Origin: an uncultured Mycoplasmatota bacterium
Lineage (GTDB): Bacteria > Bacillota_I > Bacilli_A > RF39 > UBA660
Reading direction: 5' to 3'
Assembly (NCBI GenBank): GCA_947166445.1
Contig: CAMVED010000001.1
Span: forward strand, 28,368-92,367
Length of the DNA: 64,000 nt
In this document: positions 6,954 through 47,969 of the stretch, one piece after another
Layout: each line of letters begins with the position of its first letter
How positions within the stretch are numbered: the stretch's first letter is position 1
Translations under genes and position numbers: made by a program
The notes under the pieces: model-generated
The model's input: only the letters and a program-made list of their open reading frames with translations
Told to the model about the DNA's origin: nothing
The model's database searches: none

Positions 6954-7508
6954 CTAATTGTACTTACTCATAAGTCTTTCAAAATCTATTACAATAAAAT
7001 CATTTAAAATATCGACTGTTTTAGGTAAAAATTCAGCAATAGCATCTCGCTCTTCATTACTAAATCTTCCTAAAACATAATCCTTAGTATTCATATCTCT
7101 ATTATTAGAAATACCAATTCTAAATCTTCTAAACCTATTTGTACCTAAAGATCTTTCAATATCCTTAAGACCATTATGACCACCACTTGAACCAAATAAC
7201 CTTAATCTATAGTCAAGAAAATCCAAATCAAGATCATCACTAATAACTAAAATATCAGAATAATCAATGTCATAATAATTAGCAAAACTTTGAACAACTT
7301 CACCAGATAAATTCATATAAGATTGAGGTTTGACAAATAAAATCTTTTCACCTTCTATAAATAAATCAGTATATAGAGCATTAAATTTCTTTTTATCAAT
7401 AGAAACACCTAAACTCTTAGCATAATTATCTAGTATGATAAAGCCCATATTATGACGGGTATTTTCATATTCTTTTCCAGGATTACCAAGTCCAACAATC
7501 ATCTTCAT
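6954..7508 (-). CDS. pth: Peptidyl-tRNA hydrolase
   Basis: MKMIVGLGNPGKEYENTRHNMGF. Length 184 aa. Confidence 0.95.
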   Translation of the reverse strand: MKMIVGLGNPGKEYENTRHNMGFIILDNYAKSLGVSIDKKKFNALYTDLFIEGEKILFVKPQSYMNLSGEVVQSFANYYDIDYSDILVISDDLDLDFLDYRLRLFGSSGGHNGLKDIERSLGTNRFRRFRIGISNNRDMNTKDYVLGRFSNEERDAIAEFLPKTVDILNDFIVIDFERLMSKYN

Positions 7509-7516
7509 AACATCAC

Positions 7517-8311
7517 CTATTTTCCAATATCAACAGTAACTACCTTAGAATCATCCATTTCAAGCTTACAAGATCTTTCAAAAATATCAACAGAAATAAC
7601 CTTACCTTCTTCTCCATTGTAAACATACTTTGATCCAACCTTAGGAAGACCCTTCTTATAAAAATTATAATCATCATTTTCATAAGCTAAACAACACATA
7701 AGTCTACCACAAACACCATTAATCTTCTGAGGATTTAAAGCCAAATTTTGATTCTTAGCCATATTTATAGAAACACTATTAAGATCTCTCAAAAATACAG
7801 AACAACATAATTCCCTACCGCATTGACCATATCCACCAACAATTTTAGATTTATCTCTAACACCAATTTGCCTTAATTCAATTCTAGTTTTATATATAGC
7901 AGCAAGTCTCTTAACAAGTTCCCTAAAATCAACACGTGAATCAGCCAAAAAAGTAAACATAAGTTGCTTTCTATCAAAAGTAAAACAAGCATCCAATATT
8001 TGCATATCGAGTCCAAGATCACCCGCTATAGAAATTGCTTCTTTTAAAGCATTATCAGCATCTTTTATGTTTTTTTCGTGATTAGAAATATCATTTTTTG
8101 AAGCAATTCTAACAATATCTTTAAGATCAGAATTAAGTTTTTTCTCATCAACATCAATAACATCAGTCATAACAGTACCAAATTGTTCACCCTTTTCAGT
8201 ATTTGTTATAACAAAATCGCCTTTAGCAAGTTTAAAATCACCAACTAAAAAATAATATATCTTTTTAGAGCCACTAAAACTAACACCTATAACCTTTTTC
8301 ATATCAAACAC
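7517..8311 (-). CDS. ricT: PSP1-domain protein RicT/YaaT (stage 0 sporulation)
   Basis: PSP1 Cys-rich C-terminus (CGRELCCSVF, CGRLMCCLAYE). Adjacent to holB, as in Bacillus. Confidence 0.8.
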   Translation of the reverse strand: MFDMKKVIGVSFSGSKKIYYFLVGDFKLAKGDFVITNTEKGEQFGTVMTDVIDVDEKKLNSDLKDIVRIASKNDISNHEKNIKDADNALKEAISIAGDLGLDMQILDACFTFDRKQLMFTFLADSRVDFRELVKRLAAIYKTRIELRQIGVRDKSKIVGGYGQCGRELCCSVFLRDLNSVSINMAKNQNLALNPQKINGVCGRLMCCLAYENDDYNFYKKGLPKVGSKYVYNGEEGKVISVDIFERSCKLEMDDSKVVTVDIGK

Positions 8312-9194
8312 TTCCCATACTTATAAAAAGATTATCTATAAATAAATTAATATTAACATTAAATCTTAAATCATAAATAAACTTATCAATAATTTCCATT
8401 TTCCTTATTATATCATGATAATCATTATTTTTTGCAATTTTTTCAATATCGATATCAAAAAAAGAACACTTGATATTTCTTCCAATTAAAAAATTAAGCG
8501 TGTCATAATATAAATAATATCCAAAACACAAAAATTCCCTCAAGCATTCTTTTAAATCATAAAGAGGAGAATCAGCTAAAATAGAAACACCTTTAGATTC
8601 AAACTCAAAATAAATATCATAAAACTTTTTAACATATGAATTAACAAAATCATCATATCTAATACCAAAATCGTTATCATATAAAGAAACAAAAATGCTT
8701 TCATAAACATTATCATCATTAATTAAGCTAACAAGTTGACAACGAGAAACAATAGTAGGCAAAACATTAATAGAACTGTTGCAAAGTAAAATAGCAATAA
8801 CATCACCTTCAGGTTCCTCAAGAAACTTAAGTAAACTATTTGCAGCACTCTTATTCATATTTTGAACATCACAAATAATATATACTTGTCTTTTATTATC
8901 GATAGATTTCATTGAAAAATCATTTTTTAAAGAAACAATATCACCTTTATTAACATAAGCATTCTCACCAATAATTTTTAAATTAGGATAATTAGAATTA
9001 TCAATTAAATTACATATTTTTTCATCATAAACACCATTACACAAGAAAAATTTAGCCAAATCAAGAGCTAAATTAAACGCATATGAAACACCATTGCTTT
9101 CAATCATATAAGCATGAGAAATATGACCTACACTATTACTATGCATAAAATAATTATAAAAAACTTTTTGTGAATCCTTATATTTATCCAACAT
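8304..9194 (-). CDS. holB: DNA polymerase III delta' subunit
   Basis: AAA+-like clamp-loader subunit. Size and synteny with ricT fit holB. The sequence itself is divergent. Confidence 0.6.
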   Translation of the reverse strand: MLDKYKDSQKVFYNYFMHSNSVGHISHAYMIESNGVSYAFNLALDLAKFFLCNGVYDEKICNLIDNSNYPNLKIIGENAYVNKGDIVSLKNDFSMKSIDNKRQVYIICDVQNMNKSAANSLLKFLEEPEGDVIAILLCNSSINVLPTIVSRCQLVSLINDDNVYESIFVSLYDNDFGIRYDDFVNSYVKKFYDIYFEFESKGVSILADSPLYDLKECLREFLCFGYYLYYDTLNFLIGRNIKCSFFDIDIEKIAKNNDYHDIIRKMEIIDKFIYDLRFNVNINLFIDNLFISMGSV

Positions 9195-9205
9195 ATAACC
9201 ACCTA

Positions 9206-9400
9206 CTAAAAAAACAAAAAATAAATAACAACAAGCATAATAAGACCAACAATACCAAATAATCCAACAACTACTATAGTAATAGCATTCAAAGGAATAA
9301 AAATATCCAAAACTACAGCCATTTTATCAAAAAGATATATAATAAACGGTGCCAATAAAAAACGTCTAAAAAAATTAATATATTTTTTCAAAGTAAACAC
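9206..9400 (-). CDS. bofA: BofA-like small membrane protein (pro-sigma-K processing inhibitor family)
   Basis: IPLNAITIVVVGLFGIVGLIMLVVI resembles BofA VPINLVTTAISGILGIPGIAALVVI. Position after recR matches the Bacillus recR-yaaL-bofA order. Confidence 0.45.
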   Translation of the reverse strand: MFTLKKYINFFRRFLLAPFIIYLFDKMAVVLDIFIPLNAITIVVVGLFGIVGLIMLVVIYFLFF

Positions 9401-9425
9401 CTCAAAAAAATATATGAACTAAAAC

Positions 9426-10028
9426 TTAATCTAAAACTTCTTTTCTATTATTAAGAGCAGATTCTAAAGTAAGAGAATCAATATAATCCATGTCAGCGCC
9501 TATTGGTATACCATTAGCAATTCTAGATATAACAACATTAGAATCATCTAAACACCTTTTAATATACATAACAGTAGTGTCAGCCTCAATACCAGATCTA
9601 GTAACAAAAATTATTTCATTAATATTAGTATTTCTTACCCTATCAAACAAACCTTTCAAATCAATATCTTCAGGCCCAATATCATCAAAAGGAGAAATAA
9701 GTCCCCCCAAAACATGATAATAACCAGAAAAGTTACCAACTTTTTCTAGAAGAAAAACATCTTTTGAATTTTCGACAACAATTAATACTGAATTATCGCG
9801 TCCTTTATCACTACAGACAAAGCACAAATCCTGATCAGTAATACAATTACAAACATCACATTTTTTGATTTTACTTTTTATATTAGAAACACTATTACTA
9901 AAATTATCAATTTCATCTTCATCAAAATCATTAAGTAAAGAAAAAGCCATTCTTTCAGCAGATTTTTGTCCAACACCAGGAAATTTTTTAAAACACTCAA
10001 TTAATTCATTAACGCATTCTGGAAACAC
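9426..10028 (-). CDS. recR: Recombination protein RecR
   Basis: HhH FPGVGQKSAERMAF, C4 zinc finger CDVCNC..CFVC, Toprim domain. Length 200 aa. Confidence 0.95.
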   Translation of the reverse strand: MFPECVNELIECFKKFPGVGQKSAERMAFSLLNDFDEDEIDNFSNSVSNIKSKIKKCDVCNCITDQDLCFVCSDKGRDNSVLIVVENSKDVFLLEKVGNFSGYYHVLGGLISPFDDIGPEDIDLKGLFDRVRNTNINEIIFVTRSGIEADTTVMYIKRCLDDSNVVISRIANGIPIGADMDYIDSLTLESALNNRKEVLD

Positions 10029-10029
10029 A

Positions 10030-10332
10030 CTACATCAATCCATTCATCATACTAGAATATTTACCCATTTTTTGTTCAGTAGTCTTATCAACCTTAGAAA
10101 AAGCATCATTTAAGGCCAAAACAACCATATCTTCAAGCATAGAAATATCATCATTAGCTAAATCCTTAGCACCATCTAAAAATTTAACTTCAACAATTTC
10201 CTTGGTACCCTTAACTTTTACAGAAACTAAAGAACTAGCACCATCAAAAATAGAATTATCTATTTCATTCTTAATACCAGTAATTTCCTTTTGCATAGCT
10301 TGAGCTTGCTTCATTAAAGCTTGCATATTCAT
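10030..10332 (-). CDS. ybaB: Nucleoid-associated protein YbaB/EbfC
   Basis: Length 100 aa. LMKQAQAMQKE N-terminus. Sits between dnaX and recR. Confidence 0.9.
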   Translation of the reverse strand: MNMQALMKQAQAMQKEITGIKNEIDNSIFDGASSLVSVKVKGTKEIVEVKFLDGAKDLANDDISMLEDMVVLALNDAFSKVDKTTEQKMGKYSSMMNGLM

Positions 10333-10344
10333 ATATACATCCTC

Positions 10345-11985
10345 CTATCTTATTTCAACAATATCATCACCAAAAACATTTTGAGCAACCTTTAAAACAT
10401 CAGAAACATTTTCGGTAGATTCATTGTCTATTATAACATCATTTTTAATATCATGTTCCATATATTCATATTTTTTACCAGCCTTTACATCAGTTACATA
10501 CTTATTTTTAAGTTTATTCCACTCATCAGTATGAACAAAAGCAATATTATAAGATTTACCCATGACTAAATTAAATAAAAGTTCAAGTTTAGTAATATTA
10601 TTATTACCATTATCAACAATAGAATCATAATCAGCAGAAATAATAACATCCTCCTTACCAACCACCTGAACAGTTGAATCTAAAAAATAAGAAACCAAAG
10701 CAGAAAATTCTTTATTATGAACATAATCATAAAATCCCTTCCACTTATTAACAATATCATTCTTTAATTCCTTATTAGCAAGAGCAAATGCATTATTCAC
10801 AACAATATCAAAGTCTTTTCGTTTTTTCACAAATGTTTGTTTGTTATCATTAACATCAGTATTAACATTTCTAAAAGACTTACTAACATTTAAATCATTA
10901 ATAGAGCTAGAAATTATTTCCCGGGAAATAATTTCATCACTGTCTTCATTTTTTTCATTAGTAGAAATAGAATTAACAATCTTTAAAATTTCAATTTCAA
11001 AAAATAACATTTGATTAAAAGAATTGCGTAAACCATTATATATATAACTAACACCATCAATAATCTTCATAAAATCATCATCTGATATAATAATTTTATC
11101 TTTATTAACAGCAAGATTACGCATATAATTCAATAATTGTTCAGTAATTATTTCGATACTCTTCCCCGAATTAACTAATTTTTCCACAAAATCGAAAACA
11201 TTATTGATATCTCCACTACAAATATTAACAAAAAGTTCAGATATAATATCAGCATCAACAAGACCAACAACATCATAAAACAATTCCTCAGTAATAACAT
11301 TAGAATAAGATAACAATTTATCTAAAAGACCAATAGAATCACGCATACCACCATTACAATAAGAAGCAATTAGAGACAAAACATTAATATCAGCATCAAT
11401 ACCCTCATTATTACAAATATTAGATAAACATTCTACAATATCTTGAACACCAATACGTTTAAAATCATAGCATTGACACCTAGAAATAATAGTCTCAGGC
11501 ACTTTATTAATTTCAGTAGTAGCCAAAATAAAAATAACATGTTCTGGAGGTTCTTCTAAAGTTTTTAACAAAGCATTAAAAGCACTTGTAGAAAGCATAT
11601 GAACTTCATCAATAATATAAACTTTATATTTTGAAACACTTGGCATTAAAACAACACTATCACGAATAGTTCTAATTTCATCAACACCATTATTCGAAGC
11701 AGCATCTATTTCAATAATATCAGGGTTACTCCTATTATTAATAAGCTTACAACTATCACATTCATCACATGGATCAAAGCCATTTAGTTTAGAGCAATTA
11801 ACAATTTTAGAGAGCAACTTAGCAATAGTAGTCTTACCTGTACCCCTAGGACCTGAAAATAAATAAGCATGCATAAATCTATTATTAGAAATAGAATTTT
11901 TAACAATTTGAACAATATATTTTTGTCCATAAATCTCATCCAATTTTTTAGGACGATATTTACGATATAAAGCAACATATTCCAT
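10345..11985 (-). CDS. dnaX: DNA polymerase III subunit tau/gamma
   Basis: Walker A GPRGTGKTT, clamp-loader motifs, C4 Zn module CDECDSC. Length 546 aa. Confidence 0.95.
   Translation of the reverse strand: MEYVALYRKYRPKKLDEIYGQKYIVQIVKNSISNNRFMHAYLFSGPRGTGKTTIAKLLSKIVNCSKLNGFDPCDECDSCKLINNRSNPDIIEIDAASNNGVDEIRTIRDSVVLMPSVSKYKVYIIDEVHMLSTSAFNALLKTLEEPPEHVIFILATTEINKVPETIISRCQCYDFKRIGVQDIVECLSNICNNEGIDADINVLSLIASYCNGGMRDSIGLLDKLLSYSNVITEELFYDVVGLVDADIISELFVNICSGDINNVFDFVEKLVNSGKSIEIITEQLLNYMRNLAVNKDKIIISDDDFMKIIDGVSYIYNGLRNSFNQMLFFEIEILKIVNSISTNEKNEDSDEIISREIISSSINDLNVSKSFRNVNTDVNDNKQTFVKKRKDFDIVVNNAFALANKELKNDIVNKWKGFYDYVHNKEFSALVSYFLDSTVQVVGKEDVIISADYDSIVDNGNNNITKLELLFNLVMGKSYNIAFVHTDEWNKLKNKYVTDVKAGKKYEYMEHDIKNDVIIDNESTENVSDVLKVAQNVFGDDIVEIR
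10914..10931. promoter_or_regulatory. Noc-binding-site (NBS)-like palindrome TTATTTCCCGGGAAATAA, extended to a 24-bp perfect palindrome, inside the dnaX CDS
   Basis: Contains TATTTCCCGGGAAATA, the B. subtilis NBS consensus. CCCGGG is rare in this AT-rich DNA. The sequence encodes EIISREII. Confidence 0.6.
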
Positions 11986-15855: not shown

Positions 15856-18872
<3,017 letters not shown>

Positions 18873-18945
18873 ATTTAAAATTTAGATTTAAAAGCCTCAA
18901 ATTCGCACCAACTCCCAAAACTAGTACTCCAGTACTTACTATTAC

Positions 18946-18982
18946 ATTATATCACAAAAAAGGCATAAAAAAAACGATTTTT
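18946..18982. repeat. 37-bp direct repeat copy A (ATTATATCACAAAAAAGGCATAAAAAAAACGATTTTT) with terminator-like hairpin
   Basis: Identical copy at 19810..19846. Each copy is followed by an AAACGAT..ATCGTTT hairpin with flanking A and T runs. Confidence 0.7.
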
Positions 18983-19010
18983 ACACATTTAATCGCTTTT
19001 TTTACTATTT

Positions 19011-19784
19011 TTATCTCACTATTCTATTAGAATCATAATTCTCCAAATCTCTTGTCTTAACTAGATCACATAAAACACAATCACCATCTCTTGCAGAATT
19101 TTCTAAAGCTGAAAGATTTAAATTTTCATAAACACGAGATTGTTTATTATTTTTAATATACTCTTGCACTTGTCCTTCAACACCATAACCTTTTAAACGC
19201 ATAGAATAACCTAGATTATCTAAAGATTGCATAAAATCAGAAAACTTAACATAACCAGAAACTTTAGAATTAAGAAGATTTATAACATTTTCATTAGGTG
19301 AAAGCAGTGTTTCTGTAGGACGTGGGCTAAAAGATACTTTAACTATTGTATCTTTTAAAAGTCTCGAAGTATCATCGTTAATAACATTATATTGATTATC
19401 AACAATATGAATAAATTTTATAGAACCAGTTAAATTTATAGCACCAACAACTCCATTATTAATCAATGCATTAGATAGATATTCCATTTTATTAACAAAA
19501 TTAACATTAGAATTAGCTTCTGATATAATATCATCCACATCTCTTTTATCATAAAATGCAACACTTTTTCCGTCTCCTAGCACAACATACCTTTTAATTT
19601 CTTGACTTTTTACTTCTTCATCATTAATTTTTTCTATTTTTTTCACATTATTATCTTCTATTCTAACAGAATTACCATTCATAGTCTTTATACTATCTGC
19701 TAAATCTTGTTTACTTATTAAACCATCATTATACATTTCAAATAGTATATCCATTTTTTCTTTACTTAACATATAACACCTCAC
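19011..19784 (-). CDS. Hypothetical protein (257 aa) between recF and comK-like
   Basis: Intact ORF. No family recognised. Bracketed by the 37-bp direct repeats. Confidence 0.4.
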   Translation of the reverse strand: MRCYMLSKEKMDILFEMYNDGLISKQDLADSIKTMNGNSVRIEDNNVKKIEKINDEEVKSQEIKRYVVLGDGKSVAFYDKRDVDDIISEANSNVNFVNKMEYLSNALINNGVVGAINLTGSIKFIHIVDNQYNVINDDTSRLLKDTIVKVSFSPRPTETLLSPNENVINLLNSKVSGYVKFSDFMQSLDNLGYSMRLKGYGVEGQVQEYIKNNKQSRVYENLNLSALENSARDGDCVLCDLVKTRDLENYDSNRIVR

Positions 19785-19809
19785 ATAAAATGAATTATTT
19801 TCAAAACAA

Positions 19810-19846
19810 ATTATATCACAAAAAAGGCATAAAAAAAACGATTTTT
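19810..19846. repeat. 37-bp direct repeat copy B
   Basis: Identical to 18946..18982. Confidence 0.7.
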
Positions 19847-20307
19847 TAAAGTTTATCGTTTTTTTTATTACTTTTCCTGTTATTAGAAATAGATTCCAAC
19901 ATATTACACCTAAAAATCTGATTTTTTACTGAAAAATAAGGACAATCTACAATAACAGAATCACCATTATTAAAAACAATTTTAGATTTTTTATTATGTT
20001 TTTCTACATTTCTAATATTCTTATACGAAATCCAACCAACATTTTCAGATGCAAGAGCTTCTGTAGGAAAAAAAATAAGCTTTTGAGTTTCCTCAACAAT
20101 AACAGGAATCTTATAAACACTACCTAAAATGCTTTTTGAGCCTACTACTCTACCATCAAAACTACTTCCAAAATAATTACAACTATGTTCCATTACCTCA
20201 TATGGAGTATCATTAATAATATATTCATCATTTTTTTCGATAACTCTAGTCTTATTTTTATCAAATGGAAGAATAGCTAATGTTTCATCATTAATCTCAT
20301 ATTTCAT
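19846..20307 (-). CDS. comK: ComK-family competence transcription factor
   Basis: Aligns to B. subtilis ComK: YE.N..T.A.LP, R.IEK, SC.FFGSS, IFFPT, GWIS, FNNG. Likely start ATG at 20307 with RBS AGGGGGTGA. The listed ORF extends upstream to 20430. Confidence 0.75.
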   Translation of the reverse strand: MKYEINDETLAILPFDKNKTRVIEKNDEYIINDTPYEVMEHSCNYFGSSFDGRVVGSKSILGSVYKIPVIVEETQKLIFFPTEALASENVGWISYKNIRNVEKHNKKSKIVFNNGDSVIVDCPYFSVKNQIFRCNMLESISNNRKSNKKNDKL

Positions 20308-20454
20308 AATATCACCCCCTAAAAACAATTTTTGCAATTGCAAAAACCTTATACCACTATATAATGTCGAAAAAGATAGAAATTTGTAGAATTTATAGAA
20401 AAAATTGCAAAAAAAAAGAAATATTAACAATTATTGGTTAATATTTCTAATTTA

Positions 20455-21570
20455 TTAATAAGTTCTAATTGGTAAAATTAGAGAAACAAGATCATCATTA
20501 TCATCATTTTTTAACAAAATAGGTTTTATTTCACCAACAAATGTTAATATTACATCACTAGATTTTATAGTTTTAAGAGCATCCATCATATATTTAGCAC
20601 TAAAACTAATCTTTATTTCATCTGAACAATCAACATTCATCTTTTCTTCTACTTTACCTATTTCAAGTGACATAGATGTTACTTTCATAAGTTTATTCTT
20701 AATTTCAAGAGTAACAATATTATTATCATTATCATCATTTAATATGCTTGCCCTATCAACAACATTATAAAATTCATTAACATTAAGTTTTAATTCAAAT
20801 AAAGATTCAGTAGGAATTAAATTCTTAGTATTAGGATAAGTACCATTAATTAACCTAGATTGAAAAATAATATTATTAAATTTAAATATAATCTTATTAG
20901 AAAAGAAATGTAATTCAATTTCATCTTCAGAAAAAGATAAAAGTTTCATAAGTTCATTTAAATTCTTGCTTGGAATAATAATATCTATATCATTAGATAC
21001 CTTTTTAGAAAGTTTATATTTTCTAAGAGATAACCTATAAGAATCAGTAGCACTACATTCTAATAAATCATTATTTATCTTAATATTAACACCTGTAAGA
21101 ACAATTCTAGCTTCATCCATAGAACAAGCATAATTAGTTTGACTTATCATAGTTTTAAAATCAGAAATCTTCATATCAACAAAATCTGTTGATAAGTCTA
21201 AATTAATATCAGGATACTCTTTAGCATCAATTCCATTTAAACTAAATTCACTATTTTCTGTATAAATCATTATCTTATGATCATCAACAGTATCAATATT
21301 AATAAACTCAGAATCTAACTTTCTAATAATATCAAGAATATATTTACCTTTAATTACAATACTTCCTGTATTATCAATAATTAAATTATCACTTTTTTCA
21401 ATAAATGTTTGAATAGTAATATCATTATCAGATGCAGTAATTACTAACTTATCCTTTAATAAATCAAATTTTATTCCAGAAAGTATTGGTATAATATTTT
21501 TTGTAGAGATAGCTTTAGAAACATTATTTAAAGCTTCTAATAATAAAGTTCTTTTAATTTTTAATTTCAT
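20455..21570 (-). CDS. dnaN: DNA polymerase III beta sliding clamp
   Basis: Length 371 aa. Sits next to dnaA. Confidence 0.95.
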   Translation of the reverse strand: MKLKIKRTLLLEALNNVSKAISTKNIIPILSGIKFDLLKDKLVITASDNDITIQTFIEKSDNLIIDNTGSIVIKGKYILDIIRKLDSEFINIDTVDDHKIMIYTENSEFSLNGIDAKEYPDINLDLSTDFVDMKISDFKTMISQTNYACSMDEARIVLTGVNIKINNDLLECSATDSYRLSLRKYKLSKKVSNDIDIIIPSKNLNELMKLLSFSEDEIELHFFSNKIIFKFNNIIFQSRLINGTYPNTKNLIPTESLFELKLNVNEFYNVVDRASILNDDNDNNIVTLEIKNKLMKVTSMSLEIGKVEEKMNVDCSDEIKISFSAKYMMDALKTIKSSDVILTFVGEIKPILLKNDDNDDLVSLILPIRTY

Positions 21571-21587
21571 TTTAATTCCTTCTTTCT

Positions 21588-21716
21588 TATTTTTATTTTT
21601 ATTTTTATAGTATTTATAATAATACTGTTAACAGTGTTAATAACTATTAAAAATCATATATACCAAGGAAAAAATCAGTTTTTAAATGTTAATAATTGTT
21701 AACAGTTTTAACAAAG
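21588..21716. other. oriC part 1 in the dnaA-dnaN spacer: AT-rich unwinding element (TTATTTTTA)x3 plus DnaA-box variants TGTTAATAA at 21635 and 21687
   Basis: Tandem TTATTTTTA at 21588..21610. GTTAAC and TGTTAATAA motifs sit between dnaA and dnaN, as in Bacillus oriC. Confidence 0.6.
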
Positions 21717-23099
21717 TTATGTTAATTGTTTTTCAATATTGTTGATTGCATCATTTAAATCCTTATTAATCTTCATTTCTCTTTCAATTTTATTACAAGC
21801 ATGTATTACAGTAGCATGATTTTTACCAGAAAATTCAATACCAATTCTTTCAAAAGACTCATCTGTAAGTTTTCTACACAAATACATAGCAACTTGTCTG
21901 GGAATAGCTAAATTTGGAGTTCTTTTCTTGGATTTCATATCCTCAAATGATATCTTATAAAAGTTAGCTACACTTTTTTGTATTCTACGAATATTATTCT
22001 GATCTGTAACAGTTTCTTTTTTAGTAAAATCTCTTAAAGCTTCCATGGCAAATTCTAAAGTAATATCAGTAACTCCCATAACTGCTGAATAAGCAATAAG
22101 TCTAGTAATGGAGCCTTCAAGCTGTCTTACATCATTGCCAACATTCGAAGCTATAAATGAAATAACATCATCGTTAATAAACAAAGCTTCTCGTTTTAGT
22201 TTTTTCTTAATAATGGCAACCTTTAAATCATAGTCAGGTGGACTAATATCGACTTGTAATCCCCAAGCAAATCTTGTTCTAAGTCTATCTTCAAGGACTT
22301 TTAAATCTTCTGGAGATCTATCAGAAGAAACAATAATTTGCTTACTATCATTATATAAATTATTAAATGTGTGAAAAAACTCTTGTTGCGTCTTCTCTGC
22401 CCCTCCTAAAAACTGAATATCATCAATTAACAATACATCAACATTACGATATTTACTCTTAAAAAAAGTTGCATAATCCAAGTTATTAAAATTATTTCCT
22501 TTTCTAGCAAGACCAGTAAAGTCATTCATAAAGTCATCACTAGTAACATATAATACCCGTTTTTTAAATTTATCTTCAATATAATTACCAATAGCATGCA
22601 TTAAATGAGTCTTACCAAGACCACTATTACCATATATAAATAAAGGATTATATAAAGTACCTGGGTTTTCAGCAACAGCAAGAGCGGCAGCTTGAGCAAA
22701 TTTATTTGATTCCCCTACTACAAAACTTTCAAATGTATAATTCTTATTTAAATTTGAAACATGATCCTTAATATAAGAAGAATTATTAACACTATCATTA
22801 GTAACAGGCTGATTTATATTATCCTTCTCTTTTTTTAAAAAATCATCAACATTATCTTGTAATATATATTTAATATTATCAACATTAGTTGTTAATAAGT
22901 TATTAAAACTATCAAGAATAATATCTTTATAATTTCTATCAATATGATTCTTATACCACATAATTGGAATAACTAATCTTACATTAGTATCTTCTATACC
23001 TATAAAATCAATATTTTTAAACCATGTATCATAAGATAAAGGATCGACGATATTACTAATATTATTTAAAACTTTAGACCATAATAATTTATCATCCAT
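21717..23099 (-). CDS. dnaA: Chromosomal replication initiator DnaA
   Basis: AAA+ GNSGLGKTHL. C-terminal DNA-binding domain. Length 460 aa. Confidence 0.97.
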   Translation of the reverse strand: MDDKLLWSKVLNNISNIVDPLSYDTWFKNIDFIGIEDTNVRLVIPIMWYKNHIDRNYKDIILDSFNNLLTTNVDNIKYILQDNVDDFLKKEKDNINQPVTNDSVNNSSYIKDHVSNLNKNYTFESFVVGESNKFAQAAALAVAENPGTLYNPLFIYGNSGLGKTHLMHAIGNYIEDKFKKRVLYVTSDDFMNDFTGLARKGNNFNNLDYATFFKSKYRNVDVLLIDDIQFLGGAEKTQQEFFHTFNNLYNDSKQIIVSSDRSPEDLKVLEDRLRTRFAWGLQVDISPPDYDLKVAIIKKKLKREALFINDDVISFIASNVGNDVRQLEGSITRLIAYSAVMGVTDITLEFAMEALRDFTKKETVTDQNNIRRIQKSVANFYKISFEDMKSKKRTPNLAIPRQVAMYLCRKLTDESFERIGIEFSGKNHATVIHACNKIEREMKINKDLNDAINNIEKQLT

Positions 23100-23419
23100 A
23101 ATACCATCTCCCCACCTAAAATAAAGTATTTACCACTTAATTCAATTCTAATACATTTAATAAAAAATTAAAAGTTAAAAAAGAAATTAACATACTTATT
23201 AACATAATTGTTAACATGATTTTTCCTTTAAATACATACTATAAAATAGTTTTTAACAAATTTCAAGTGAAAATGATATTAACATGTTAACAATTAACAA
23301 ACGTTGTTAATAATAAAAAATGTTAATTAACGTTAAAATGGTTAATAACTTAAAAAATATTGACAAATCCCCTATTTTTCATATACAATAAAACCGATTA
23401 AGTTTGGAGGTGTATTAAC
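23100..23419. other. oriC part 2: DnaA-box-variant cluster (TTATTAACA 23196, TGTTAATAA 23305, TGTTAATTA 23321, GGTTAATAA 23340), plus the rpmH promoter TTGACA(23360)-N18-TACAAT
   Basis: Repeated 9-mers and their reverse complements in the dnaA/rpmH divergent region. Confidence 0.6.
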
Positions 23420-23545
23420 TTGAAAAAAGGAACTTTTCAACCAAATAGCAGAAAAATGAAGAAAAAACATGGTTTCTTCGCTCATAATGAAGCTGGTATT
23501 GTTAAAAGAAGAAGAAACAAAGGAAGAAAAAAATTATCAAAATAA
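23420..23545 (+). CDS. rpmH: 50S ribosomal protein L34
   Basis: TTG start after GGAGG. Encodes (M)KKGTFQPNSRKMKKKHGFFAHNEAGIVKRRRNKGRKKLSK. Confidence 0.85.
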   Translation: MKKGTFQPNSRKMKKKHGFFAHNEAGIVKRRRNKGRKKLSK

Positions 23546-23586
23546 CAGTCCACTAAAAGTGGATTTTTGATTATGGAGGAATTAAT

Positions 23587-23931
23587 ATGAAAAAACAAAA
23601 CATTGTTAAAAAATCCAAAGACTTTACCAGAATAATAAAAAAAAGAAATGGTAAAAGTAATAATTACTTCATAATAAACAAAGAAGAAAATCAAGAAAAT
23701 ATAGCAAAATTTGGAATTACATTTACCAAAAACATAGGTAATGCAGTTACTAGAAATAAATTAAAAAGAAGAATAAAAAGCATAATTGATAATAATGATA
23801 CAATATATGAAAAAGGAAATACTTATATAATAATAACTAAAAAAGATGTGTTAAGGCTTTCATATGGGCAAATTGAAGAAGAATTAATAAATATTTTCCA
23901 AAAGATAAAAGGAGAAAAGAATGAAAAATAA
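23587..23931 (+). CDS. rnpA: RNase P protein component
   Basis: RNR motif NKLKRRIKS. Length 114 aa. Follows rpmH. Confidence 0.9.
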   Translation: MKKQNIVKKSKDFTRIIKKRNGKSNNYFIINKEENQENIAKFGITFTKNIGNAVTRNKLKRRIKSIIDNNDTIYEKGNTYIIITKKDVLRLSYGQIEEELINIFQKIKGEKNEK

Positions 23932-27840: not shown

Positions 27841-28539
27841 ATGACTAGAAACGAAAATAGTAATATAAAACTAAATAATCATAAAACCGAAACAAATGAA
27901 TTAATACAACTAATAAATCAAATAATTGAACATATAAGCAAAGTAAATCCTAGATATTCTAGTATAAATAATGTAGTAATTACATATAGAGATAAGATTT
28001 TTGATATATATAGTAGTTTAGAAAAACAATCTATAGATTTTTGGAGTAATGAGTTTTTACTAAGTGATGCAATACTAAAACACTTAGAATTCAAAGTTTA
28101 TGATAATATAAATTTGTTATTATCATTAGCTACTGATATAAGTAAAAATAGAGTACTACACAAAAAAGTAATAGAACAAAAGAGAATTAAAGAAATAGAA
28201 AGTATTAATGCTTACATAAAAAACTATGATATCAAAAACAATTTATATGAAACCTTAGTAGAGTATTACAGTGACATTGTAGTAAATCAATTAAAGCCAA
28301 AAGATACCATATTTTCATATATAATTATACAATCGTGTTTAAAAGATCTAAAAATGGACAATATATTAAACAAAGAACAAAAAAGAAAGATTATACAAAT
28401 AATAGAACAACGAGAATTAGAATGCATAAAATACAGAAAGAATTTTCAACAAATAGAATTACAAGAAGAAAAAGAGAATCCACAACCAAATAAAATTCAA
28501 ATCAAAAATAAAAATAAAACTAGTAAAAAGGACATATAG
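27841..28539 (+). CDS. Hypothetical protein (232 aa)
   Basis: Intact ORF between mnmE and mnmG. No recognisable family. Confidence 0.35.
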   Translation: MTRNENSNIKLNNHKTETNELIQLINQIIEHISKVNPRYSSINNVVITYRDKIFDIYSSLEKQSIDFWSNEFLLSDAILKHLEFKVYDNINLLLSLATDISKNRVLHKKVIEQKRIKEIESINAYIKNYDIKNNLYETLVEYYSDIVVNQLKPKDTIFSYIIIQSCLKDLKMDNILNKEQKRKIIQIIEQRELECIKYRKNFQQIELQEEKENPQPNKIQIKNKNKTSKKDI

Positions 28540-39562: not shown

Positions 39563-40588
39563 ATGAGTACAGTAAAAATATTTATGAATAAAATAAAAGA
39601 AATAGATACCAAAAGATTAAATATGCTAGCAGAAAAAATAGCAAAAAAAAATAACAAAAGTATAGGATATGTAAAAAGAGATATGATTAAAAACTTTTTA
39701 AAATATAAAATAGGTTATACTGATTATTTTAAAAGTGACTACATTAATTTAACAAAAGAACAAAAAAAAGATTTTTTAACATCTAAAAATTTTATAAATG
39801 TAATGGGGTATTTAAATCCAAGACAATATCGTATCTTAACACTTGATAAGATAGTGTTTAATAATATAATGAAAGATTATTTAAAAAGAGACTATTTAGA
39901 TTTAAGAGTAGCATCAGATAAAGAAATAGAAAAATTTTTAAAAGGAAAAGAAACAGTTTTTGCTAAACCGACTACAGATTTCGGAGGACACAACATTGAA
40001 AAAATAAAAGTAAAAGATATAAAAAATATAAAAGAATTACACAAAAAATTGTTAAAAAACAATCAATTTCTTCTTGAAGATGGAATAAAGCAACATAAAT
40101 TAGTACAAAAAATTAATCCATATGCTGTTAATGCATTAAGACTAATTACCTTAGTAAAAGATGGAGAAGCACATATAATTGGTAACACTTTCAGAATAGG
40201 ACTAGATGAAAATCATGCTATACAATGCAGGGATACATATATGCGATTAGAAAATGATGGGACACCAGCATGTAAATTTGTAGATGATGATGGAATAACT
40301 TATGACAAACATCCTTTAACAGGCTTTGACTTTAATAATATAGAAAAAATACCATATGTCCCTGAAGCAATAGAAATGGTAAAAAAAGCAGCAATGTTGA
40401 TTCCAGATTTAAGATACATAGGATGGGATGTGGCAATAACTGATAATGGGCCACTTATTATCGAAGGAAATGAGTTTCCAAGTTATGGTTTAATACAAAA
40501 TCATATGTTAAATCCTAAAAATCCAGGACATTTAAAACAAATAAGAGATGTAATTGGAGAAGAAGAATTCAAAAATATAAAGCTGTAA
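39563..40588 (+). CDS. ATP-grasp-like protein (sugar-transfer-associated TupA-like family), paralog 1
   Basis: Motifs FAKPTTDFGGH and YIGWDVAITDNGPLIIEGNEFPS. About 60% identical to the next ORF. Confidence 0.45.
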   Translation: MSTVKIFMNKIKEIDTKRLNMLAEKIAKKNNKSIGYVKRDMIKNFLKYKIGYTDYFKSDYINLTKEQKKDFLTSKNFINVMGYLNPRQYRILTLDKIVFNNIMKDYLKRDYLDLRVASDKEIEKFLKGKETVFAKPTTDFGGHNIEKIKVKDIKNIKELHKKLLKNNQFLLEDGIKQHKLVQKINPYAVNALRLITLVKDGEAHIIGNTFRIGLDENHAIQCRDTYMRLENDGTPACKFVDDDGITYDKHPLTGFDFNNIEKIPYVPEAIEMVKKAAMLIPDLRYIGWDVAITDNGPLIIEGNEFPSYGLIQNHMLNPKNPGHLKQIRDVIGEEEFKNIKL

Positions 40589-40637: not shown

Positions 40638-41669
40638 ATGAGTACGACGAAAATAATGTTTGAAAAAATAAAATCAATAAACCATAAAAGATTAAATCTT
40701 TTAGCAGAACGTATAGCAATAAAAAATAATAAAACAGTTTCATTTGTTAAAAGAGATATGATTAAAAACTTTTTAAAATACGGAATTGGTTATACAGATT
40801 ATTTCAAAGGAAATTATATAAACTTAACAGAAGAAGAAAAAAAGAATTACGTGACATCAAAAAACTATATAAATGTATTAAGATATTTAAATCCAAAAGA
40901 GTATAGAGTATTAACATTTAATAAATTAGTATTTAATAAAATATTTAAAGATTATTTAAAAAGAGATTTTATAGATATAAGAACAGCAAAAGAAGAAGAT
41001 ATTGAAAGATTTATAAAAAACAAAAAATATATTTTTGCAAAACCAATAACAGATTTTGGAGGACACGGTATAACAAAAATAGAAACAAATAAAATAAAAA
41101 GCATCAAAAGTTTAAAAAAACAATTACTTAGTAAAAAACAATATTTAATAGAAAACGAACTCAAACAACACAAAGTACTAAATGAAATAAATCCAGATTG
41201 TGTATCATCGTTTAGAATAATAACTCTTTATAATAAAGGAAAAGTATATACATTTGATAATGTGTTAAGAATAGGATTAGATAGCGATCCAGCCCTAGCA
41301 TGTTTTGATGGCGATATAAGAATAAACGAAGATGGAACGCCTGCAAGTGGAATGTGGGATGATAATGGGACTTTATATAGTACTCATCCTTTAACAGGAT
41401 ATGAAATGAAAGATTTTACTAAGTTGCCATATGCAAAAGAAGCTGTAGAAATGGTAAAAGAAGCTGCTATGCTAGTACCAGAACTAAGATATATAGGATG
41501 GGATGTAGCGATAACTGATAAAGGACCAGCAATAATTGAAGGTAACGAAACACCAAGTTATGGACCAACACAAAATTATATGCTTAATCCAAACAAAAAA
41601 GGACATCTAAAAGAAATAAGGGACATCATAGGAGAAGAAGAGTTCAAGAATATAAAGTTGAATAAATAA
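40638..41669 (+). CDS. ATP-grasp-like protein, paralog 2
   Basis: Tandem duplicate of 39563..40588. Confidence 0.45.
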   Translation: MSTTKIMFEKIKSINHKRLNLLAERIAIKNNKTVSFVKRDMIKNFLKYGIGYTDYFKGNYINLTEEEKKNYVTSKNYINVLRYLNPKEYRVLTFNKLVFNKIFKDYLKRDFIDIRTAKEEDIERFIKNKKYIFAKPITDFGGHGITKIETNKIKSIKSLKKQLLSKKQYLIENELKQHKVLNEINPDCVSSFRIITLYNKGKVYTFDNVLRIGLDSDPALACFDGDIRINEDGTPASGMWDDNGTLYSTHPLTGYEMKDFTKLPYAKEAVEMVKEAAMLVPELRYIGWDVAITDKGPAIIEGNETPSYGPTQNYMLNPNKKGHLKEIRDIIGEEEFKNIKLNK

Positions 41670-45725: not shown

Positions 45726-47235
45726 AGGAACATCAATTTTTTTAGGAATATGTGCTTTTGCTATAAGTATAATAATGGTAATCTTAGACAGTGCTTCATA
45801 TGTATATTATGATGCTAGAAATGTGTTTAGAGTTTATTTAAATGGTGAATCACTAGGTTTAATAGAAAGTAAAAAAGATTTAGAAGATTACATAAATAAA
45901 AACCAAGAGGCAATAAAACAAAAGTATCACGTAAAAAATGTATATATTCCAAATGGTTTAAAGATAGAAGAAGAGACAACATATAGTGAAAAAACAGAAA
46001 CAATAGAAAATATATATCAAAAAATAGCAAATCAAGAAGATTTCACAATCAATGGTTTTACAGTTACAATTTCAGATATTAAAACTACTAAAAACAAAGA
46101 TAATGATAAGAAAAAAACTGAAAAAATAAAAGAATATATTTATTTGTTAGATAAAGATATTCTACAAACAGCCATAAATGATGTAGTAAGATCATTTGTT
46201 AATGAAAAACAATATCAAGATTATTTAAATGAAGTAAAAAAAGACCAAACCGCAATAGGTACAATTATTGAAAATGTTTATTTAAAAGAACAAATATCAA
46301 TAAAGAAAGGTAAAATACCTGCCAATAGTAAAATATATAGTGATAGCAATGAATTAGCAAAATATTTATTATTTGGTACAAATGAAAAAAATAAAACATA
46401 TAAAGTAAAATCTGGAGACAATGTAAAAAATATTGCCTATGATAATAAAATGTCCACAACAGAACTATTAATAGCAAACCATGATATAAAAGACGAAGAT
46501 TCACTTTTATACCCTGGACAAGAAATAATAATTAGCTATATTAACCCTGTAATAACAGTAGTTGAAGAAACACATACAGTTAAAAAAGAGTCAACAAGGT
46601 ATAAAACTATTGAAAGAGAAGATAGCAGTTTATTTGAAGGTACAACAAAGGTTGTTCAAAAAGGAAAAAAAGGTACCAGCAAAGTAACTAGAAAAATAGA
46701 AAAAAGAAATGGTGCAATTACGCAAGCTTTAATAGTCTCAACAGAAGTGTTAAAAGAACCAGTTAACAAAATAATTAAAGTTGGTACAAAACAAGCAACC
46801 AATTATGGAGGATACTATGGAGGCCCAGTAAATTTAAGTGGTGTTTGGGGCTGGCCAACTACAAGTAATTATACAATAACTACATACTTTGGATATCAAC
46901 TCCGTGCAGATATTGGAGAATCGTCTCCTAGATGGCATGATGGTATGGATTTATCTGTAGGATGTGGAGCACCAATATATGCTGCTAACGGAGGAACAGT
47001 AACGTTTGCAGGCTGGGGTGGAGGCTACGGGAATGAAGTAGAAATCAGCCATGGTGGTGGTATAGTAACTTTCTATGGCCATTTAAATAGCATTCTAGTA
47101 TCACAAGGACAAACAGTATCTAAAGGTCAATTAATAGGTACAATGGGTAACACAGGTTATTCATTTGGATGCCACTTACATTTTGGATTAAGCGTAAATG
47201 GCTCTATGGGAGATCCGTTATCCTTATATAACTAA
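45712..47235 (+). CDS. Membrane-anchored LysM + M23 metallopeptidase
   Basis: N-terminal TM helix. LysM YKVKSGDNVKNIA. M23 HxH motif HLHFG. Gly-rich segment. Confidence 0.7.
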   Translation: MLVSKGTSIFLGICAFAISIIMVILDSASYVYYDARNVFRVYLNGESLGLIESKKDLEDYINKNQEAIKQKYHVKNVYIPNGLKIEEETTYSEKTETIENIYQKIANQEDFTINGFTVTISDIKTTKNKDNDKKKTEKIKEYIYLLDKDILQTAINDVVRSFVNEKQYQDYLNEVKKDQTAIGTIIENVYLKEQISIKKGKIPANSKIYSDSNELAKYLLFGTNEKNKTYKVKSGDNVKNIAYDNKMSTTELLIANHDIKDEDSLLYPGQEIIISYINPVITVVEETHTVKKESTRYKTIEREDSSLFEGTTKVVQKGKKGTSKVTRKIEKRNGAITQALIVSTEVLKEPVNKIIKVGTKQATNYGGYYGGPVNLSGVWGWPTTSNYTITTYFGYQLRADIGESSPRWHDGMDLSVGCGAPIYAANGGTVTFAGWGGGYGNEVEISHGGGIVTFYGHLNSILVSQGQTVSKGQLIGTMGNTGYSFGCHLHFGLSVNGSMGDPLSLYN

Positions 47236-47969
47236 TGAAAATAACAAATATAGCAAGTGGTTCAAAAGGAAATTCTACCTTAATTGAACTAGATAATAAA
47301 AATATTTTAATAGATATTGGTCTTCCTATTTCAAACTTAGAAAAAAGATTGGGAAGACCTTTTCCTAAAATAGATATTTTAATAATAACTCATACCCATG
47401 TTGACCATATAAAAGGAATAAAATCAATAATAAGAGAACAAAACCCTACAATATACACATTAGAAAACGGTTTAACTGAAAAAGTTTCATCCAAAAAAAT
47501 AAACTATCAAAAAAGTATTGAAGAAGAGAACTTAATAATAGAACTTTTTGAAGTATCTCATGATGTACCATGTGCTGGAGTATATATAAAATATAAAAAT
47601 AAAGAGTTAGTTTATATAACAGACACAGGATAGATTAAAGATAAATTATTAAAAAAGTATCAAAACAAAGATGTGTATATTTTAGAAAGTAATTATGAAG
47701 AAGAAATGCTAAGAAATGGAAAGTACCCATATCATTTAAAACAAAGAATAAGAAGTGACCGCGGGCATATATCAAATGAAGATAGTTGCAAGTATTTGTC
47801 AAAACTAATTGGAGATAAAACAAAATATATAATGTTAGCGCATCTAAGTGAAGAAAATAATAATCCAGAAATAGTAGAAAAAAGAATAAAAGATTTAATA
47901 GAAAAACTAAGCTATAAACCAGAAAAAGTAATATTAAATCAAGAAAAAACAAATATAATTGAGGTATAA
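47235..47969 (+). pseudogene. walJ: WalJ/YycJ-like MBL-fold hydrolase interrupted by an in-frame TAG at 47631..47633
   Basis: ORFs 47235..47633 and 47673..47969 are in the same frame. A single TAG between them is the only stop. N-terminal ASGSKGNS..HTHVDH and C-terminal AHLSEEN resemble YycJ. Confidence 0.6.

Follow-up and report, generated by a model that had tools for sequence, protein, structure and literature searches.

The stretch of DNA analysed here (the window, 64,000 nt of contig CAMVED010000001.1 from an uncultured Mycoplasmatota bacterium) carries, between the origin-cluster genes dnaN and recF, a homologue of the competence regulator gene comK and an orphan open reading frame (ORF) of 253 codons, ORF253. 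Comparison with related genomes revealed that comK is the ancestral, fixed occupant of the dnaN-recF slot in this clade, where it stands in place of yaaA, and it is very probable that ORF253 is a strain-specific accessory cassette lying between two copies of a duplicated terminator-promoter module. A preliminary description of the window had both genes inserted together, with a terminator cassette duplicated during their acquisition. A duplication linked to gain or loss fits ORF253, for which a sister strain provides the empty site, but comK was not part of it.

comK in the dnaN-recF slot

For the comparison, 36 loci were taken by way of dnaN from assemblies representing one genome per species, metagenomic contigs bearing close ComK homologues were added, and the window proteins were mapped onto them. 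A comK gene lies between dnaN and recF in 37 of the 39 loci where both of these genes are visible, and the comK-bearing loci cover dnaN identities from 99% down to 46%. Further contigs encoding a ComK at least 90% identical to that of the window read dnaA-dnaN-comK-recF-gyrB without exception (10/10). The two loci that lack comK are outgroups, L030 (Izemoplasmatales) and L035, with dnaN identities of 32–39%, and their slot holds a 72 aa S4_2 protein, the usual yaaA product (PF13275). No yaaA was found in the window, in agreement with the preliminary description, nor in any comK-bearing locus. Since 37 of 39 loci and all ten further contigs carry comK, and the outgroups carry yaaA, comK is ancestral in the clade. 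The preliminary description had itself pointed to the dnaN-recF interval of relatives as the place to look, and ubiquitous presence at this position was found there for comK and not for ORF253. The clade is RF39-like, consisting of uncultured, AT-rich, genome-reduced gut or rumen Bacilli, because one of the relatives is 'Mycoplasma sp. CAG:611' and the GTDB family CAG-611 falls in the order RF39 (PMC8035907). No paper was found that places comK between dnaN and recF or that treats ComK in RF39, and this version of the origin cluster, common to the whole clade and with comK where yaaA would be, is undescribed in the searchable literature.

By its profile match, the 153 aa product can be assigned with confidence to the ComK family, as the preliminary description had it. 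The match to Pfam PF06338 (E 1.2e-36; 126.2 bits, with a cut-off of 22.3) aligns residues 2–144 to profile positions 3–150 of 152, which is the full length of the domain, and every one of the 117 ComK homologues found belongs to PF06338. The motifs SC.FFGSS, IFFPT and GWIS are held in common with the family. BLASTP against B. subtilis ComK gave 29% identity over 146 aa (E 1e-26), a comparison that is supportive only. No solved ComK structure was found by sequence search. Given its family, the protein would be a DNA-binding activator of DNA-uptake genes.

The spacer between comK and recF is typically 98–134 nt long and up to 191 nt in a few loci, and the only longer ones are those of L001 (2029 nt) and the window (973 nt, from the gene coordinates). 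Variation in the cluster is confined to the two spacers beside comK, which act as small hotspots for variable genes; they are also predicted transcription-unit boundaries, and insertions there would break no operon. On the dnaN side, four relatives (L015 7263-7700, L025 7259-7696, L028 7359-7796 and L031 4914-5399) have a prepilin-type gene of 145–161 codons between dnaN and comK, the product of which starts MKKKGFTLIELL... and matches the N_methyl domain PF07963 (E 1.5e-7). It is the only direct tie of comK to the DNA-uptake machinery seen here, and is supporting evidence. A Bax1-I membrane protein gene occupies the same spacer in L009 and L011 (inserts at 7302-9947 and 7153-7800, respectively), and the L009 insert also encodes a 407 aa glycosyltransferase-like protein and a 229 aa membrane protein. 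In L044, a 298-codon gene lies on the opposite strand upstream of comK (123-1019).

The comK gene itself shows some variation. In L009, the comK match is broken into two overlapping pieces in different frames (10011-10446), and a frameshift, pseudogene formation or misassembly may lie behind this. The start codon is ATG in the window, TTG in L001 (7241-7243) and the L039-L044 group, and ATT in L019 (7234-7236); L050 is also among the loci listed for start-codon variation. All of these starts follow a strong GGGGGTG ribosome-binding site.

The repeat module and the 864-bp cassette

The strain represented by contig L038, from SRR33718342, is a close sister of that in the window, with dnaA, dnaN and ComK proteins that are 99.6%, 98.7% and 96.7% identical, and it has a single module between comK and recF. 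By blastn, L038 1-2612 matches window positions 22428-19810 (97.3% identity) and L038 2547-2759 matches window positions 19012-18799 (96.3%). Because these two matches overlap by 66 nt, which correspond to the repeat, L038 is a precise empty site, with the sequence of the window less 864 bp. The site is also empty in about twenty other close relatives, including L019, L039-L045 and L047. The cassette holds a single ORF with the base composition of the neighbouring genes, lacks mobility genes and terminal inverted repeats, and matched neither phages nor plasmids. A transposon, an insertion sequence (IS) element and an integron cassette were considered and rejected, there being no mobility gene or inverted ends and the repeat being 37–57 bp of native spacer. 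Likewise, the reading of the cassette as foreign DNA was rejected on its G+C content, which is the same as that of its neighbours.

The 37-bp direct repeat noted in the preliminary description is exact, with 37/37 positions identical between 18946-18982 and 19810-19846, no third copy in the window and 0.00 copies expected from 100 shuffles. Similarity extends to 57 bp at 84% (18946-19002 and 19810-19866) and, in weaker form, runs on into the 3' end of comK. On the minus strand, both copies present an A-tract, a hairpin and then a U8 tract. The hairpin of copy A, which adjoins comK, spans 19831-19866 with its left arm within the last comK codons (-17.8 kcal/mol, z -4.9 against dinucleotide shuffles), and that of copy B, which adjoins recF, lies at the end of ORF253, at about 18967-19002 (-15.6 kcal/mol, z -4.8). 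Together with the hairpin that follows dnaN, these are putative intrinsic terminators of a 27% G+C genome, the G+C content of the window being 26.8%. To this extent the earlier view of the repeat as a terminator cassette stands, but the repeat also carries a sequence conserved as the predicted promoter of recF. The last 11 nt of each copy (minus strand) read TGTGATATAAT, a perfect extended -10 element that is seen twice in the window (0.24 expected). In copy B (18946-18956) it occupies the position of the native recF-gyrB-gyrA promoter, and in copy A (19810-19820) it faces ORF253. The motif TGnTATAAT is found 78–92 nt upstream of the recF ATG in 40/40 comK-bearing loci with a visible recF start, and in L019 (dnaN 88% identical), which has a single copy, the end of comK is followed by a hairpin and U tract, then ATGGCTATTTTGTGATATAAT, a 75-nt leader and the recF ATG. 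The L019 layout and the 40/40 conservation argue for a module in which the comK terminator precedes the extended -10 promoter of recF-gyrB-gyrA.

In the window, identity between the two copies lasts through the end of TATAAT, after which they diverge at once, one entering the recF leader and the other a 37-nt leader and ORF253. Upstream of the 37-bp core, the recF-side copy keeps a comK-3'-like sequence (TCTAATAG...AAAAATAGTAAAAAAAGCGATTAA), within which ORF253 comes to its final codons and its stop; the similarity to comK is modest, and the segment may be a comK 3' remnant. The hairpin loops read AAATGTGTAAAA in the 3' flank of the cassette and AAACTTTAAAAA at the 3' end of the resident comK. 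With the putative terminator after dnaN, comK would form a separate transcription unit, and three units are predicted in all: comK, ORF253 and recF-gyrB-gyrA.

Downstream of the recF -10, a GTA..GGAGTA(C) block is present at a distance of about 10–25 nt in 35 unique relatives, and could serve to stabilise the 5' end or to bind a protein. The recF leader of the window does not fold significantly (z +0.27) and matches nothing in Rfam, recF leaders compared by alifold gave no consensus structure (-0.08), and no Shine-Dalgarno sequence occurs within 20 nt of the recF ATG in the window's subgroup.

The orphan ORF had been described as 257 aa long from a GTG at 19784. The ORF is present, but since this GTG sits inside the ribosome-binding site GAGGTG, the real start would be the ATG at 19772, giving 253 aa, the same form as database protein P0001. 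No Pfam, NCBIfam, PHROG or PADLOC family was matched, which agrees with its earlier description as an unknown ORF, and neither a signal peptide nor a transmembrane segment was predicted. A search of 5.8 billion clusters returned only the protein itself, an exhaustive HMMER search of 1.84 billion representatives returned only 2 distant relatives, and a family-profile search returned three proteins (the query, P0120 and one new member, P0121), so that the family totals about four proteins. Searched by tblastn, neither 50,697 phage records nor 72,556 plasmid records gave a match. An AlphaFold2 model built on a three-sequence alignment reached moderate confidence (predicted local distance difference test, pLDDT, 70.8; predicted template modelling score, pTM, 0.61) and comprises a pair of helices at the N-terminus, a disordered linker and an alpha/beta domain; Foldseek found nothing in PDB or BFVD better than E 0.1, with template modelling (TM) scores below 0.2.

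Homologues of ORF253 were found in three other lineages only, always directly upstream of recF and each followed by the same terminator-promoter module. That of L001 (289 aa, a form present on 24 contigs) is accompanied by an antisense gene, a paralogue of the window gene at 27841-28539, and has comK upstream, as does the 277 aa homologue of L037. In L048 and L049, the homologue is also 277 aa and the upstream gene fragment (2-199 in both loci) is not comK, its product ending ...NAFGKDYFNRKR; another gene may lie between comK and the cassette in this strain. The 277 and 289 aa homologues carry an extra N-terminal domain that ORF253 lacks and that is related to the N-terminal ~86 aa (MDKKYYINKNLDGKINWVGI...) of a 695 aa membrane protein encoded at 59170-61257 (+) in the window (E 2e-7 in a small database). 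Because of this homology, the cassette family appears to derive in part from the duplication of a segment of a resident gene.

ORF253 is best regarded as a real gene because of its ribosome-binding site, its distant homologues upstream of recF and the moderate-confidence AlphaFold2 model, and, because a 97%-identical strain does without it, it appears to be dispensable. The copy of the recF promoter probably drives its expression. As a best guess, held with low confidence, its product may be a dispensable, fast-evolving cytoplasmic protein that is co-expressed with the recF-gyrase operon.

Table 1. Coordinates of genes and sequence elements in and around the dnaN-recF interval of the window.
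Feature	Position	Strand	Evidence
dnaA	21717-23099	-	ORF list
dnaN (DNA polymerase III beta clamp), upstream edge of slot	20455..21570	-	Pfam DNA_pol3_beta N-terminal, central and C-terminal domains, E 1e-26 to 1e-38
Hairpin and U9 tract after dnaN, putative intrinsic terminator	20408..20448	-	12-bp stem AGAAAUAUUAAC/GUUAAUAUUUCU, -12.0 kcal/mol, z -4.8; inverted repeat
Candidate comK promoter	20348..20392	-	TTCTACA, ~21 nt, TTCGACA (20365-20371), 11 nt, extended -10 TGgTATAAG (20348-20356)
Perfect 18-bp palindrome TTTTTGCAATTGCAAAAA between comK -10 and ribosome-binding site	20329..20346	-	Sequence
comK ribosome-binding site AGGGGGTG	20313-20320	-	Sequence
comK, 153 aa	19846..20307	-	PF06338 and conserved position
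Repeat copy A, adjoining comK	19810..19866	-	Repeat search, folding, alignment with single-copy relatives
864-bp insertion/deletion relative to L038 (one repeat copy and ORF253)	18946..19809	-	blastn; 18983-19846 equivalent (ambiguous within repeat)
ORF253 leader with ribosome-binding site GAGGTG	19773..19809	-	Similarity to recF leader stops right after TATAAT
ORF253, 253 aa	19011..19772	-	Orphan; corrected start
Apparent degenerate comK 3' end with hairpin left arm and loop	18983..19031	-	Alignment; TCTAATAG...AAAAATAGTAAAAAAAGCGATTAAATGTG resembles comK 3' ends of L019, L039 and L045
Repeat copy B, adjoining recF	18946..19002	-	Repeat search, folding
recF leader with conserved motif GTACTGGAGTAC (18924-18935)	18873..18945	-	Conserved GTA..GGAGTA block in relatives
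recF, downstream edge of slot	17778..18872	-	Pfam SMC_N and AAA_15

The comK upstream region and the surroundings of the interval

The heptamer TTCGACA in the candidate comK promoter is, on the reverse complement, an exact Spo0A-box core, the 0A-box core being TGTCGAA (PMC3485338). Upstream regions of comK were compared across loci L001-L059. Among 31 non-redundant regions, TTCGACA was seen 14 times compared with 0.22 expected (about 60-fold enriched), often within two or three TTnGACA repeats spaced ~10 or 21 bp apart, the last of which ends 11 nt ahead of an extended -10, TGnTATAAG. Since direct binding of Spo0A~P to the comK promoter occurs in B. subtilis (PMC3297582) and RF39 members are predicted to keep sporulation genes (PMC10868615), this enrichment makes Spo0A control of comK in the clade a reasonable hypothesis. 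The spo0A gene is not in the 64-kb window.

The 18-bp palindrome that follows the comK -10 could serve as an operator or fold into an RNA hairpin. All 16 relatives tested have an inverted repeat or hairpin shortly before the comK ribosome-binding site (mean z about -1.95), with a sequence that varies between loci. RNAalifold predicted no pairs in nine anchored comK leaders, because the hairpins are not positionally alignable, and there was no alignable covariation.

Transcription on the minus strand runs in the order dnaA, dnaN, comK, ORF253, recF, gyrB, gyrA. According to the ORF list, the recF stop codon overlaps the gyrB start, gyrA comes after gyrB, and no remB (yaaB) lies in between. The sign of the GC skew flips at about 23.2–23.4 kb, and the divergent plus-strand genes rnpA, yidC and jag begin at about 23.6 kb; the dnaN-recF interval is thereby placed at a distance of some 3 kb from the origin of replication. 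The earlier remark that comK stands in a gene-dosage-favoured position gained no support. The classical DnaA box TTATCCACA is at chance level in the window (21 seen, 21.6 expected). Clusters of TGTTAACA/TGTTAATA boxes, each about 100 bp long, occur on both sides of dnaA, at 21626-21713 (8 hits) and 23197-23312 (9 hits), and probably represent AT-rich variants of the DnaA box in a bipartite oriC; the same word is contained in the stem of the hairpin after dnaN (ATATTAAC/GTTAATAT). A search of Rfam across 17500-23700 gave no match at E up to 1.

Elsewhere in the window, the paralogue of the L001 antisense gene (27841-28539, +) is a 232 aa orphan situated between mnmE and mnmG, with no Pfam or PADLOC family match. 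The antisense gene in the L001 comK-recF interval (7796-8572, -) is 33% identical to it, and a ~53%-identical counterpart is found at L001 78-698 (-), within a feature given as 21-698. Two pairs of tandem paralogues were also noted, one at 39563-40588 and 40638-41669 (+; 341 and 343 aa, with near-identical N-termini) and another at 319-1020 and 1087-1731 (-; 233 and 214 aa, each with one N-terminal membrane helix), neither protein of the latter pair being above the Pfam threshold for any family. A gene of the metallo-beta-lactamase fold (HxHxDH motif) is apparently split into ORFs of 132 and 98 aa (47235-47633 and 47673-47969, +), and may be a frameshift or a pseudogene.

Alternative readings, known systems and meaning

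In the proposed arrangement, the origin cluster of the clade would read dnaA-dnaN-comK-recF-gyrB-gyrA, with comK as a unit of its own between the dnaN terminator and its own terminator. The comK-recF spacer would normally consist of one module, and in the window of two modules with the cassette between them. ORF253 would be transcribed from the copy of the recF promoter and end at the copy of the comK terminator, leaving the recF promoter intact. A gain could have occurred by homologous recombination with DNA of a relative bearing the cassette directly upstream of recF, the module and recF providing the homology, and a loss by clean recombination between the two repeats.

Joint acquisition of comK and the orphan ORF as foreign DNA, with the terminator cassette duplicated along the way, was suggested by the presence of both genes where model Firmicutes have only yaaA and by the same repeat following each of them, but it conflicts with the residence of comK across the clade, with its presence in L038 without ORF253, with the conservation of the comK region and its own promoter features among relatives and with the absence of any compositional anomaly. 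This account is refuted for comK and, taken as a whole, is hardly credible. The opposite polarity for the cassette, in which cassette and duplicated module are old in the sub-clade and the empty strains, L038 among them, lost it by way of the repeats, is possible though not favoured. At least three other lineages have divergent alleles directly before recF, each with the module and an apparent comK 3' remnant, which argues for an old cassette family; the 31–35% identity of these homologues suggests age, and a deletion between the 37-bp repeats would give exactly the L038 sequence. The distribution is patchy, however, with about 20 empty sites among close relatives, and the identity of the window copies drops abruptly from 37/37 to ~55% while the spacer ATGCCTTTTTTG within the 37 bp differs between lineages, a pattern that argues for a recent recombination junction or gene conversion. 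A contig chimera joined at the 37-bp repeat, such that ORF253 does not truly lie between comK and recF, is very improbable. ORF253 is on a single contig, no independent contig encoding it was found, and the cassette is bounded by a short repeat; yet independent assemblies share the architecture with other alleles (L001, L037, L048 and L049, and the 24 contigs with the 289 aa form), and a mixture of strains would still put the cassette in the same slot, both flanks being the slot's own sequences.

Several observations weigh against a resident comK that regulates competence and a strain-specific cassette between duplicated modules. Either gain in the window or loss in L038 could explain the indel, ORF253 itself is on one contig only, and a small chance of a strain-mixing artefact at the repeat persists. 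The homologues are 31–35% identical to ORF253 compared with 85–90% for the flanking genes, which fits either very fast evolution or an exchange of old alleles. A generic terminator scan missed all three hairpins, the stems of which have two G-C pairs where the scan required at least three, and the recF promoter has no recognisable -35; the proposed promoter and terminator roles draw on sequence, folding and conservation. For ComK, the presumed function follows from family membership, late competence genes are absent from the window, and the ~35 C-terminal residues of the B. subtilis protein are missing (the alignment stops at residue 157/192). The window protein ends 9 residues past the end of that alignment, and the missing tail lies outside the Pfam domain. 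A search for ComK-binding sites (K-boxes), as advocated in the preliminary description, gave no support, B. subtilis-type boxes not being above chance in the window with 1 mismatch allowed (type I, 1 match and 0.30 expected; type II, 0 matches and 0.41 expected), although the motif may differ in this clade; nor was a convincing K-box found upstream of the relatives' prepilin genes. These points bear on a functional alternative that is compatible with the anatomy described here, namely that the short ComK is no longer the competence master regulator and instead controls the adjacent replication and repair genes or some other programme. The strict linkage of comK to dnaN and recF in the clade, the missing C-terminus, the lack of a K-box signal and the weak comK start codons of some relatives (TTG or ATT) would agree with such a change of role. 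It is nonetheless unlikely in view of the full-length ComK profile match, the prepilin gene inserted beside comK in four relatives and the Spo0A-box signature in the promoter, as in the comK promoter of B. subtilis.

Compared with B. subtilis ComK, the window protein belongs to the same family over the whole Pfam domain, with shared motifs and ~29% identity, and its gene has Spo0A-box-type heptamers in the candidate promoter, the B. subtilis comK promoter being a direct target of Spo0A~P. It differs in its length (153 aa compared with 192 aa, without the C-terminal tail), in the lack of a detectable AAAA-N5-TTTT-type K-box in the window and in its location within the dnaA-gyrA cluster, ~3 kb from the GC-skew switch. 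In B. subtilis, comK is at a locus unlinked to the origin cluster. The Firmicute origin cluster, dnaA-dnaN-yaaA(rlbA)-recF-(remB)-gyrB-gyrA, is matched in the order and strand of dnaA, dnaN, recF, gyrB and gyrA, and in the divergence of rnpA, yidC and jag on the other side. Unlike that cluster, the window has neither yaaA (S4_2) nor remB, comK takes the place of yaaA clade-wide, and comK and recF have their own predicted promoters and terminators in place of a single operon.

The cassette resembles a Campbell-type or other homology-mediated insertion in being a single-gene insert bounded by direct repeats of the target, with a precise empty site in a sister strain and no mobility genes. It is unlike such insertions in that the duplicated segment appears to be a terminator-promoter module, so that the insert would come, or stay, with ready expression signals. 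The repeat is far longer (37 bp exact, ~57–90 bp in all) than the target-site duplication of a transposon. The comK gene of Listeria monocytogenes is an insertion hotspot, with a prophage of the A118 family in comK, and here too the comK locus is a site of strain-variable DNA. In the window, however, comK is intact, and the insert, a single-gene segment of 864 bp, lies downstream, lacks an integrase and does not resemble phage DNA.

As an accessory cassette at the strain level, the orphan gene is ordinary, a matter of micro-evolution and no surprising new system. A bolder extension is doubtful: that ComK replaced yaaA order-wide with Spo0A-box promoters, hard-wiring DNA uptake beside dnaN and recF and to origin dosage, with the spacer downstream of comK serving as a landing pad at which DNA taken up from relatives would insert orphan genes, each picking up a duplicate of the recF-gyrase promoter. 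Neither the comK finding nor the cassette overturns anything, and their value lies in a corrected reading, in which comK is the resident and the orphan alone is mobile. The 864-bp cassette provides a clean natural case in which the doubling of a terminator-promoter module appears to have equipped a gene for expression, and a sister strain still shows the empty site. For a lineage known from metagenomes only, ComK is now documented, fixed near the origin in the place of yaaA and with a Spo0A-box signature like that of B. subtilis. This gives a concrete handle on the natural transformability of RF39 bacteria, which is relevant to organisms predicted to depend on scavenged nutrients.

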